Origin: an uncultured Planctomycetales bacterium
GTDB lineage: Bacteria; Omnitrophota; Gorgyraeia; Gygaellales; Profunditerraquicolaceae
Assembly: GCA_964545575.1 (NCBI GenBank)
Contig: CAZJFL010000001.1
Coordinates: 69,878 to 133,877, forward strand
DNA: 64,000 nt
Reading direction: 5' to 3'
Shown: in pieces, positions 3,857 to 5,196 of the stretch
How the letters are laid out: the number at the start of each line of letters is the position of its first letter
Numbering within the stretch: position 1 is the first letter of the stretch
The notes under the pieces: generated by a model
What the model was told of the DNA's origin: nothing
Databases searched by the model: none
The model's input: the letters and a program-made list of their open reading frames with translations, nothing else
Made by a program: the position numbers and the translations under genes

Positions 3857-3915
3857 GCCGAAGCCAGAGGCTTCGGCATCCGCCATGTTTTTCAAGAGAA
3901 AAACATGGCGGAGAG
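3857..3915 (-). repeat. 59-bp perfect direct repeat, copy 1: tRNA 3' end plus two downstream hairpins
   Basis: gccgaagccagaggcttcggcatccgccatgtttttcaagagaaaaacatggcggagag is identical at 5049-5107. It contains hairpins GCCGAAGCC/GGCTTCGGC and GCCATGTTTTTC/GAAAAACATGGC, the latter incorporating the tRNA discriminator plus CCA. These are likely tRNA terminators. Confidence 0.85.
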
Positions 3916-3993
3916 GGAGGGATTTGAACCCTCGAACCCTTGCGGGTTACGTGTACTCCAGACACGCGCGCTCGGCCTCTACGCGACCTCTCC
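3906..3993 (-). tRNA. tRNA-Ser(GGA), class II
   Basis: GGAGAGGTCGCGTAGAGGCCGAGCGCGCGTGTCTGGAGTACACG-[long variable arm]-GAGGGTTCAAATCCCTCCCTCTCCGCCA, with anticodon loop CUGGAGU. CCA is encoded. Confidence 0.85.
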
Positions 3994-4003
3994 CAGATAT
4001 GAA

Positions 4004-5005
4004 TTAGACTTTTGAATTCTTATAAGACCTAAATCTCTCTATATGTTTACTATTATGACTACCGATTATTTGCATATATTTGTTAACTTCTTTTCTATCA
4101 TAAATGAAAATATGCCTTCCTCCGGCAGTTTTGCAATTTAAACTAAACCTCAGAAACATTTTATACGCCGAATTCAAAAGAGCTTTTGAATGACTCGTAA
4201 AACACAAACCCATATGCCTGTATTTAATTCCCTTGGTAGTGTGATTATGGAAATAAATACCTCCATCGGTATCCATTAAGCCCCTCAGGCAACTTTTTAC
4301 AAACTCGTTATCCTTAAAAATCCATTGCGGCACATCTGTGCCATTTAACATCTTGTTCCCTTTCTTCATACCGCAATTTATCAGAAAAAGAACGAGGTTT
4401 TTACTCGATACTGTAACAACAATGGTATTTTTATCCCTGACTGTGACAGTAGAGGTTATCTTAAATAAATCAGTGACAATTTTTTTGATGAAATAGGCAT
4501 AATCCCTGTCAGTTTTATTATTATAGATTCTGACTTGATGTTCATTTATTGAGCCATCGCCTAAAAGAATCCCAATAAATTCTGCTAACAAAGAAGATCT
4601 TCGAGGATAAATAATATTTTTCCTTAACTTAAAACCTACCTTTTTAGCGAATTCCGGGTCATTCCGAAATTTCAAAGCAGAGACCATACCCCCTTTTCTT
4701 CTGCCTTCTACTGTACCAAGACGCCCGTATAATTCATTCCGCCTTAAAGCCCCCAACCTTGCCGCGCTCTTAATATTCCAATCATCCGGGAGAACTTCTA
4801 TTCTTGGAACAGAAATTCTTAGTTTCTTCTTTAATGATTGAAGAGAAACGTAATTCATTTGATATTTATCCCTTCGCCAGTCAAATAAAGTTCGCTTATC
4901 CACCTTGCAAATTCCGGCTAAATTATGCCAATCAAGATTATTTTCTTTCTTAATCTTCCCCAGAAAACTTCTCTGTTTATTTTCTAGAAATTTTACTCTT
5001 GGCAT
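4004..5005 (-). CDS. Double-motif LAGLIDADG homing endonuclease, free-standing
   Basis: Two LAGLIDADG motifs (LAEFIGILLGDGSI and LRGLMDTDGGIYF) about 100 aa apart, plus an N-terminal basic HTH-like region. The true start is MPRVKF (ATG at 5003-5005). The track ORF 4004..5191 is artificially extended by reading through tRNA-Ser(CGA) and the 59-bp repeat. Confidence 0.75.
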   Translation of the reverse strand: MPRVKFLENKQRSFLGKIKKENNLDWHNLAGICKVDKRTLFDWRRDKYQMNYVSLQSLKKKLRISVPRIEVLPDDWNIKSAARLGALRRNELYGRLGTVEGRRKGGMVSALKFRNDPEFAKKVGFKLRKNIIYPRRSSLLAEFIGILLGDGSINEHQVRIYNNKTDRDYAYFIKKIVTDLFKITSTVTVRDKNTIVVTVSSKNLVLFLINCGMKKGNKMLNGTDVPQWIFKDNEFVKSCLRGLMDTDGGIYFHNHTTKGIKYRHMGLCFTSHSKALLNSAYKMFLRFSLNCKTAGGRHIFIYDRKEVNKYMQIIGSHNSKHIERFRSYKNSKV

Positions 5006-5048
5006 AATATAATTCCAACCGCTCTGCCACCTCTCCAAGAATTTTATT

Positions 5049-5107
5049 GTATGGCGGCGCCGAAGCCAGAGGCTTCGGCATCCGCCATGTTTTTCAAGAG
5101 AAAAACA
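5049..5107 (-). repeat. 59-bp perfect direct repeat, copy 2
   Basis: Identical to 3857-3915 and positioned immediately 3' of tRNA-Ser(CGA). Confidence 0.85.
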
Positions 5108-5196
5108 TGGCGGAGAGTGGAGGATTTGAACCTCCGTACCTCTTACGAGGTAACGCGCTTTCGAGGCGCGCGCTTTCAACCACTCAGCCAACTCTC
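5107..5196 (-). tRNA. tRNA-Ser(CGA), class II
   Basis: GGAGAGTTGGCTGAGTGGTTGAAAGCGCGCGCCTCGAAAGCGCG-[variable arm]-GGAGGTTCAAATCCTCCACTCTCCGCCA, with anticodon loop CUCGAAA. CCA is encoded. Confidence 0.85.

Follow-up and report, generated by a model that had tools for sequence, protein, structure and literature searches.

A predicted free-standing LAGLIDADG endonuclease family sits on the 5′ side of bacterial tRNA-Ser genes and may travel with a replacement tRNA

What is a gene for a LAGLIDADG endonuclease doing between two chromosomal tRNA-Ser genes? Bacterial homing endonucleases come mainly from introns, inteins, and phages, and the gene considered here, on contig CAZJFL010000001.1 of an Omnitrophota genome, belongs to none of these settings. 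We analyzed a 64-kb stretch of this contig (the window) around an open reading frame (ORF) of 333 amino acids. An earlier note on the same DNA had described the ORF, with its motifs LLGDGS and MDTDGG and its place between tRNA-Ser(GGA) and tRNA-Ser(CGA), and this description is confirmed (Table 1). The note went on to explain the position by recent homing or gene conversion into a 59-bp target. The reading that we favor, with a probability of roughly 0.6, is that the gene encodes a long-lived selfish endonuclease that would target tRNA-Ser genes themselves and travel with a replacement tRNA, a proposal built on comparison of sequences.

The two motifs occupy residues 147–152 and 244–249 of a protein that matches the Pfam profile PF14528 (LAGLIDADG_3) at 42.6 bits (E = 7.5e-11; cut-off 22.5). 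An AlphaFold model (34 homologs; predicted local distance difference test, pLDDT, 88.9) predicts a double α-β-β-α-β-β-α core. Foldseek returns 98 matches in the PDB at E ≤ 1e-3, those listed being LAGLIDADG enzymes or their relatives; the best is 2dch, I-Tsp061I (E = 3e-11, template-modeling score 0.77), and others include the TliVMA intein endonuclease, I-AniI, I-OnuI and, more weakly, WhiA (8dy9). By sequence, the closest solved relatives are intein endonuclease domains. Ahead of the core lies a conserved, helix-turn-helix-like N-terminal domain of ∼135 residues with a YGxxGTxEGRRKGG motif, and the Pfam family LAGLIDADG_WhiA gives a weak match, under its cut-off, at 21.7 bits. Asp150 and Asp247, one in each motif, are invariant across 34 diverse homologs, and 81 of the 84 copies described below have the GDG and DTDG motifs. 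On the strength of the profile score, the model, and the match to I-Tsp061I, the earlier identification of a bona fide two-motif LAGLIDADG protein stands.

The gene also stands free, as had been proposed. No Rfam intron family is detected at E ≤ 1 across positions 2500–7000, and an intron core would not fit in the space available, so that an intron-borne gene is ruled out. There are no extein flanks, and the ORF has its own start (ATG, 5005–5003, the start in all homologs) and its own stop (TAA, 4006–4004), with only 10 nt from the stop codon to the next tRNA. A longer ORF of 395 amino acids beginning at a TTG was rejected as not real; it traverses the CGA tRNA. The fold match, the invariant acidic residues, and the lack of intron RNA together lead us to predict a free-standing, monomeric, two-motif LAGLIDADG enzyme that is probably catalytically competent. 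The arrangement is not an assembly artifact, because metagenome contig L107 (2736 nt), obtained independently, matches window positions 5473–2738 at 100% identity, a span that takes in both repeats, the ORF, and the flanking tRNAs.

A protein search finds 437 homologs, mostly unnamed or labeled Candidatus Omnitrophota, and a scan of one genome per species finds 456 loci with relatives. We examined 84 loci, comprising the best 80 of the 456, the window, and three contigs with closer relatives. At 75 of the 84, a tRNA-Ser gene in the same orientation begins 0–80 nt past the last codon aligned (GGA at 29, GCT at 20, CGA at 18, and TGA at 8), and the endonuclease ORF often runs into it. The gene is inverted in the same slot at four more (L041, L046, L047, and L059), and contig ends truncate two. 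The family is found in Omnitrophota (many of the bins mislabeled Planctomycetia), Nitrospirota, several Patescibacteria lineages, Chloroflexota, and an acidobacterial bin. Upstream contexts differ: the endonuclease lies between tadA and tRNA-Ser(GCT), between a permease gene and tRNA-Ser(GGA), or between tRNA-Ser(TGA) and tRNA-Ser(CGA) in Omnitrophota, and in Nitrospirota (L022, L026, L037, L039, L044, and L020) serS is followed directly by the endonuclease and then by tRNA-Ser(TGA). In a neighbor-joining tree, the endonuclease clades track isoacceptor and host phylum; members of the window clade (L001–L005, L017, L055, L081, L085, and L086; 50%–82% identity) stand before tRNA-Ser(GGA) without exception. 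In one GCT subclade the N-terminal 80 residues are gone, with the gene still intact.

No locus carries two endonuclease genes, and tblastn (E < 1e-5) finds no second copy in the 1.2- to 3.6-kb gaps of other arrays, which are occupied by a conserved NCS2-type permease or by various accessory genes. Viral contigs yield a single close match, likewise before tRNA-Ser(GGA); with no PADLOC match and only a weak match to a PHROG “endonuclease,” a phage origin was set aside. Judged from these sequences, the family occupies one niche, the 5′ flank of tRNA-Ser genes, across at least five phyla of bacteria. NCBI labels some members merely “LAGLIDADG family homing endonuclease,” and full-text searches of the literature turn up no description of a link between LAGLIDADG genes and tRNA-Ser, or of such genes in Omnitrophota or Nitrospirota, so the tRNA-Ser-associated family is apparently undescribed.

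The feature that most directly suggests a mechanism had escaped the earlier note. Ten nucleotides upstream of the ATG lies an orphan 21-nt fragment (5036..5016), a perfect tRNA-Ser 5′ end that breaks off in the D loop. Over all 21 nt it matches the tRNA-Ser(GGA) genes of two endonuclease-free loci (L016 and L042), whereas it differs from the functional GGA gene beyond the endonuclease at 4 of the first 17 nt. To score such stubs, a position-weight matrix made from 263 tRNA-Ser 5′ ends was scanned within 60 nt of the endonuclease start at 91 loci. The window stub reaches the maximal score and is undecayed (24.2, against a background 99th percentile of 7.4); 15 of the 91 loci exceed that percentile and ∼8 more hold decayed stubs, about a quarter overall, in several independent clades. 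The stubs break off at tRNA nt 16–26. Two of the inverted loci (L041 and L047) also have one, on the far side of the endonuclease. At six loci, stub nt 7–15 (ATG-GCN-GAG) form the start of the ORF, encoding Met-Ala-Glu; this conversion accounts for the Met-Ala-Glu-Gln-Ile N termini, derived from a decayed stub, at L004, L005, L007, L008, L012, and L014 and in database proteins P0046, P0052, P0064, P0070, and P0105.

Stubs are enriched at the endonuclease and are not exclusive to it. They accompany ∼25 of 91 endonuclease inserts versus 1 of 35 other large inserts upstream of tRNA-Ser, and their frequency is approximately 4-fold lower at endonuclease-free tRNA-Ser genes.

These junctions are consistent with the following sequence of events. 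The enzyme would recognize the DNA of a sensitive tRNA-Ser allele and cut in or near the segment encoding the D arm, at about nt 5–28, a placement that follows from stubs ending at nt 16–26. Repair of the break from an endonuclease-bearing chromosome would copy the endonuclease together with its downstream tRNA-Ser, replacing the broken tRNA, and where upstream homology is poor the 5′ stub of the old tRNA would stay behind. Such a site differs from the junction of tRNA 3′ end and terminator that had been suggested earlier, a suggestion that finds no support: what stays constant is the proximity to the downstream tRNA-Ser at its 5′ end, and the stubs break off within the tRNA.

In the window, the stub still lies behind a native-type leader and a −10-like box (5051..5046), and the endonuclease and tRNA-Ser(GGA) are therefore probably co-transcribed from the old tRNA promoter, with RNase P freeing the tRNA. 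The segment 5037..5058 is presumed, from its sequence, to be the original promoter and leader of the displaced gene: its GCCGCCA tail and AAAATT-type leader recur in relatives, where this type of leader precedes the GGA genes, and the functional GGA gene of the window has no native-type leader of its own. A scan of the locus for consensus sigma-70 promoters and intrinsic terminators gives counts no better than in shuffled sequence. The spacer between stop codon and tRNA, TTCATATCTG, is conserved with L086 (CTCATATCTG) and L130 (CTCATGTTTG).

The cleavage site could be arranged in two ways. We favor, with moderate confidence and without extending this to the window's own clade, a site inside sensitive tRNA-Ser alleles, in the D-arm region, with the endonuclease linked to a resistant allele; this explains both the stubs and their break points. 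Support comes from the CGA site. Locus L097, an endonuclease-free relative by tRNA-Ser(TGA) identity (93%–97%), carries a CGA allele that matches the stubs of L008, L012, L014, and L025, whose functional CGA genes are 64%–80% identical to it. Non-canonical D arms occur in 20 of 27 tRNA-Ser(CGA) genes beside an endonuclease and in 4 of 28 without one (Fisher p = 9e-6, uncorrected for phylogeny). In the other arrangement, the site would span the junction of leader and tRNA and be destroyed by the insertion. It fits the clean indel in the permease context and the GGA tRNAs that are identical to endonuclease-free alleles (both below), and it leaves unexplained the stubs and the association with tRNA-Ser across unrelated upstream contexts.

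Occupancy of the site is sporadic. Among 44 metagenome contigs sharing the 5′ sequence of the window's tRNA-Ser(GGA), the GGA site is empty in ∼35 and filled in two (L107, from the same organism, and L130); the endonuclease lies before CGA in eight of them and before GCT in one. Locus L086, which is filled, has 90% identity to the empty L125 and L091 in the upstream permease 3′ end, with homologous downstream flanks, against only 78% to the filled L085 in the same permease segment. The empty-site comparison that the earlier note called for thus finds the endonuclease absent at the same site in related genomes. At the CGA site, no filled and empty pair was found with both flanking tRNAs above 80%–85% identity. 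The GC content of the endonuclease is below that of its flanks at 79 of 79 loci (35% versus 45% in the window). Three of 84 copies have an internal stop, which also speaks for turnover.

Other observations point to long residence. The earlier note held its arrival to be recent; the pairing with GGA persists down to 50% amino acid identity, and the Nitrospirota copies have diverged together with serS. What emerges is a pairing of long standing and no new arrival, the outcome that the note itself had named as contrary to its proposal. At four-fold degenerate sites, the endonuclease is 2–3 times less diverged than tadA or serS. We discarded this as a sign of horizontal transfer; the ratio is similar at all depths, and an effect of rate or composition is inseparable from gene flow.

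Several observations weigh against a selfish element that replaces tRNA-Ser alleles. The target site is one that we infer only from junctions. The majority of endonuclease loci have no stub, and there are stubs without an endonuclease (nine short-spacer cases, a radical-SAM insert, and a tRNA-Arg stub in the window). Beside the permease, the gene entered an 8- to 16-nt leader as a clean indel and left no stub. D-arm type shows no association with the endonuclease at GGA or GCT sites, so a special D arm in the adjacent tRNA was rejected as a general rule of immunity and holds for the CGA site only. When the window GGA allele is aligned with 44 endonuclease-free alleles, it is 1 nt from those of L104 and L110, and the GGA tRNA of L130 equals those of L090, L121, and L129; any immunity therefore cannot lie inside the GGA tRNA, unless all such alleles are resistant. 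No near-identical empty-site relative of the window genome was found, relatives being ∼72%–75% identical in tadA. Finally, the copies look well kept. Of 84, 81 are intact, at one per locus, which suits a host-maintained gene as well as it suits an active selfish one, and amino acid identities for the endonuclease and SerRS in Nitrospirota run in step (62/63%, 75/74%, and 92–94/95–98%), as do those for the endonuclease and TadA between the window and L085 (80/81%). A divergence that matches SerRS at every depth, from 62% to 98%, is unusual for a purely selfish gene.

This last group of observations is the core of the strongest alternative, a domesticated and vertically inherited LAGLIDADG protein with a function tied to the following tRNA-Ser, for example as a DNA-binding regulator of the operon or as a maturase-like factor for the precursor with its long variable arm. 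The ratio of nonsynonymous to synonymous substitution rates (dN/dS) is 0.11–0.25 in every clade, even at dS ∼1. Exactly one copy per array, a GC content that tracks that of the host, and the constant orientation and tight spacing to the tRNA, which suggest co-transcription, agree with such a role, and the fold matches include precedents in WhiA and in the bI3 and I-AniI maturases. WhiA, however, has lost its catalytic acidic residues, whereas the catalytic Asp of both motifs is invariant here. The gene is missing from most genomes that have the same tRNA allele and context, its clades precede different isoacceptors, it stands before just one of a genome's four tRNA-Ser genes, and it is AT-richer than its flanks at all 79 loci. 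The four inverted copies break the logic of co-transcription, and the synonymous divergence, 2–3 times below that of adjacent host genes, could reflect gene flow. On balance, we regard domestication as unlikely.

A related proposal keeps the allele-replacement drive and its long life and adds a service to the host as the reason for its retention. The enzyme would cut incoming or competing DNA with a canonical tRNA-Ser (phages, plasmids, and transforming DNA), and the D arms of the resident genes would have been recoded to escape. This would account for selection of SerRS strength, for one copy per array, for the diverse D arms of Omnitrophota tRNA-Ser, and for the displaced 5′ stubs. We think it quite unlikely all the same.

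The endonuclease might instead be a passenger, a frequent cargo in a general insertion hotspot where some other process (tandem duplication and decay, a recombinase, or illegitimate recombination) leaves the stubs. The layout of stub, insert, and tRNA does recur in the window with the radical-SAM/SPASM gene (6559..5108), a 15-nt tRNA-Arg stub lies nearby, nine endonuclease-free stubs lie a short spacer away from a complete tRNA-Ser, several with a GC-rich palindromic module in between, and spacers hold assorted accessory genes, among them those for a PLD-type nuclease, a Bro-N protein, and a nucleotidyltransferase. A lineage-specific hotspot is insufficient, however, to explain adjacency in five phyla and in serS, tadA, permease, and tRNA-endonuclease-tRNA contexts; the stub counts (∼25 of 91 versus 1 of 35) set the endonuclease apart from other large inserts; and no integrase or transposase adjoins the locus. 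The passenger explanation is distinctly improbable. An island mediated by an integrase was rejected as well: there is no recombinase among the neighboring ORFs, the tRNA pieces that were duplicated come from the 5′ part, and of the tRNA the repeat contains only the last 10 nt.

The Omnitrophota tRNA-Ser array (TGA, CGA, GGA, Arg, tadA, and GCT) is itself a hotspot of insertion. In CGA-GGA spacers (L006–L128) the NCS2-type permease is common, and cargo elsewhere includes a PLD-like nuclease with a helix-turn-helix (L008), a nucleotidyltransferase (L034), a Bro-N protein and a 232-amino acid helix-turn-helix protein (L062), and, in L081, pyruvate kinase with a serine recombinase behind it. In the window, a second unit of this layout on the minus strand (5108–6559) consists of a CGA stub, the radical-SAM/SPASM gene, the 48-amino acid ORF, and the complete CGA gene. 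The best NCBIfam match of the radical-SAM/SPASM product, far under the cut-off, is a tungsten-cofactor maturase family. The 48-amino acid ORF may represent a small peptide-maturation cassette inserted in a tRNA gene.

Stubs are not confined to tRNA-Ser, because the leader and first 13 nt of tRNA-Arg(ACG) recur as a 15-nt exact copy (3469–3483 and 3407–3421), 62 nt upstream of the real gene; this is the third orphan 5′ stub within 4 kb. Endonuclease-free tRNA-Ser stubs lie at 2119–2240 and 2665–2770 in L027, 4654–4770 in L081, 824–943 in L129, 2419–2620 in L032, and 11099–11200 in L120. Each is followed by a GC-rich palindromic two-hairpin module (..CCCGCC..GGCGGGATCCCGCC..GGCGGGAAA) and then by a complete tRNA-Ser of the same isoacceptor. 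A search for endonuclease remnants in these short spacers gives noise only. Stub and module may represent tandem tRNA copies with internal deletions or a small element inserting into tRNA-Ser genes.

There remains the 59-bp direct repeat. Its identity is perfect and its first copy lies where it had been placed, at 3857–3915; the second copy lies at 5059–5117, the coordinates 5049–5107 given earlier having slipped by 10 nt. Similarity extends at 93% over 82 nt into the T arms. Each copy contains, as had been described, the last 10 nt of its tRNA (CTCTCCGCCA, with CCA encoded) and two hairpins, of which hairpin A pairs with the tRNA 3′ end and hairpin B lies downstream. The repeat folds as RNA at −40.9 kcal/mol, compared with −12.7 ± 2.4 for shuffles (z = −11.6). 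The hairpin sequences occur nowhere else in the 64 kb (∼0.01 chance matches expected), and with just two occurrences the segment was dismissed as a candidate dispersed element.

Comparison with relatives identifies the repeat as a tRNA trailer. Omnitrophota tRNA-Ser genes are generally followed by two hairpins: the 5′ arm of hairpin A is the tRNA's own 3′ end (CCG[CCA]), its sequence covarying between genes, and hairpin B is of the type CCGAAA...TTTCGG, followed by GCCGCCA. Homologs of the window-type trailer stand 3′ of tRNA-Ser(CGA) in endonuclease-free loci (L097, L118, L128, and L089), where likeness to the window GGA region ends at the tRNA 3′ end. In these relatives, the trailers behind CGA and GGA have a common design and different sequences. 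The GGA copy in the window lacks the terminal GCCGCCA. The closest endonuclease-bearing loci (L085, L086, L130, and L081; 71%–82% amino acid identity) have unrelated sequence 3′ of tRNA-Ser(GGA) and a different upstream context. Because the trailer is native behind CGA without any endonuclease and is absent at the closest endonuclease loci, its copying is separate from the endonuclease unit, and by this comparison the repeat is a lineage-typical two-hairpin tRNA-Ser trailer recently copied from CGA to GGA. A templated patch from break repair, primed by the common CTCTCCGCCA, is a plausible origin. With 59 of 59 positions identical, the copying is recent, as the earlier note had it, and the trailer copy alone is demonstrably so; the repeat as a duplicated target does not survive these comparisons.

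Homing by double-strand-break repair duplicates no target and makes no flanking direct repeats. The earlier proposal, that recent homing or gene conversion placed the endonuclease between two copies of a 59-bp target, draws on a repeat that is identical while the tRNA bodies differ, on the AT-rich gene, and on an undecayed stub of maximal score that fits a fairly recent rearrangement at this locus, but it is scarcely tenable given a repeat absent at every other endonuclease locus, the closest included, a trailer type native to tRNA-Ser genes with or without the endonuclease, an endonuclease that abuts the 5′ rather than the 3′ end of the tRNA at 75 of 84 loci, and a homing process that leaves its target unduplicated.

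Behind every tRNA-Ser gene stands a hairpin that takes its 5′ arm from the 3′ end of the tRNA itself (CCG or CCGCCA), at 2673–2721, 3857–3912, 5059–5114, and 6633–6681 in the window and likewise in L086, L089, L097, L104, L105, L116, L118, and L128. The stems covary across genes and genomes, and the loops are often ATTAAT. Often a second hairpin and a GCCGCCA box come next, offering an alternative pairing with the 3′ arm of the first hairpin. From their sequences, these trailer hairpins look like a conserved processing or termination device for Omnitrophota tRNA-Ser precursors.

Table 1. Features of the tRNA-Ser array around the endonuclease gene, in order of transcription (window positions; all on the minus strand)
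Feature	Position	Strand	Remarks
tRNA-Ser(TGA)	6765..6679	−	
Orphan stub, nt 1–42 of tRNA-Ser(CGA) with 3 nt of leader	6559..6515	−	96% identical to 5156–5200
Radical-SAM/SPASM gene	6461..5382	−	Low GC (35%–39%)
48-amino acid ORF	5368..5222	−	After the radical-SAM/SPASM gene, before the complete CGA gene
tRNA-Ser(CGA), complete	5108..5197	−	Canonical D arm (GGAGAGTTGGCTGAGTGG...), CCA encoded; ARAGORN; Rfam tRNA, 61 bits
Repeat copy 2	5059..5117	−	Last 10 nt of tRNA-Ser(CGA) plus native 49-nt trailer (5107..5059)
End of CGA trailer (GCCGCCA), then native-type tRNA-Ser(GGA) leader (..AAAATTCTT)	5037..5058	−	Read from the sequence
−10-like TACAAT	5051..5046	−	Within the leader, 10 nt upstream of the orphan stub
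Orphan tRNA-Ser 5′ fragment, GGAGAGGTGGCAGAGCGGTTG	5016..5036	−	21 nt, maybe reaching 5012
LAGLIDADG endonuclease gene	4004..5005	−	Free-standing, 333 amino acids
Spacer from stop codon to tRNA, TTCATATCTG	3994..4003	−	10 nt
tRNA-Ser(GGA), complete	3906..3993	−	D arm GTCGCGTAGAGGCCGAGCGC; ARAGORN; Rfam, 50.7 bits
Repeat copy 1	3857..3915	−	Last 10 nt of tRNA-Ser(GGA) plus 49-nt trailer (3905..3857)
Small membrane-protein ORF, tRNA-Arg(ACG), tadA, tRNA-Ser(GCT)		−	Further downstream, in this order

The family thus joins a chromosomal, free-standing LAGLIDADG gene to one precise niche, the 5′ side of tRNA-Ser genes. If the proposed mechanism is right, the family would do in bacteria what endonuclease ORFs do in fungal mitochondria, where they overwrite part of a gene; it would be a natural nuclease linked to the replacement copy of an essential RNA gene, and a likely driver of tRNA-Ser sequence turnover and of tRNA pseudogene stubs in arrays. 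The proteins offer new compact meganuclease scaffolds, probably specific for tRNA genes to judge by their location, with an added putative DNA-binding domain at the N terminus. For annotation, the odd Met-Ala-Glu-Gln starts that gene callers produce are tRNA nucleotides.

Among known systems, the monomeric LAGLIDADG enzymes (I-Tsp061I, I-DmoI, I-AniI, I-OnuI, and intein domains) share the LAGLIDADG_3 profile, the two Asp motifs, and the core fold. The window gene differs in lying outside an intron or intein, in its extra N-terminal domain of ∼135 residues, and in its host gene, a bacterial chromosomal tRNA-Ser that it sits beside and not within. WhiA likewise combines a LAGLIDADG scaffold with a helix-turn-helix under purifying selection. 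In contrast to WhiA, the window family retains its catalytic acidic residues, carries its helix-turn-helix-like domain at the N terminus (C-terminal in WhiA), and is sporadic rather than universal. Group I introns with endonucleases reside in bacterial tRNA genes, LAGLIDADG genes reside in patescibacterial rRNA insertions, and one such gene is found in cyanobacterial tRNA-Arg(CCU) introns, tRNA-Ser not being among the reported intron hosts (PMC13011429). These too are homing endonucleases that exploit conserved bacterial RNA genes, Patescibacteria included, whereas at the window locus there is no intron RNA and the downstream tRNA is uninterrupted.

Two further systems serve as precedents. Phage T4 SegB is free-standing in a tRNA cluster, recognizes tRNA-coding DNA, and spreads by co-conversion of flanking tRNAs (PMC2330249). 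The window family is also free-standing in a tRNA cluster and probably reads tRNA-coding DNA, as its adjacency to the tRNA and the stub break points at nt 16–26 suggest. SegB is a phage-encoded GIY-YIG enzyme directed at the T-ψ-C arm common to many tRNAs, whereas the window family is LAGLIDADG, chromosomal, and associated specifically with tRNA-Ser, with a different isoacceptor for different clades. In fungal mitochondria (Allomyces atp6; Glomus atp6, atp9, cox2, and nad3), LAGLIDADG or GIY-YIG ORFs insert together with a foreign replacement piece of the gene, leaving the displaced native piece as a dead fragment, still a match for endonuclease-free relatives (PMC3630166). The bacterial arrangement is the mirror image, with the native 5′ end displaced upstream and the replacement downstream of the endonuclease; its proposed target is a tRNA gene rather than a protein-coding one, it occurs on bacterial chromosomes of several phyla, and many of its loci have no displaced fragment. 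The likeness lies in the layout itself: in the window the stub, the endonuclease, and the complete tRNA-Ser(GGA) follow one another as the displaced fragment, the ORF, and the replacement do in the fungal genes, and the same order is found at ∼25 of the 91 loci.

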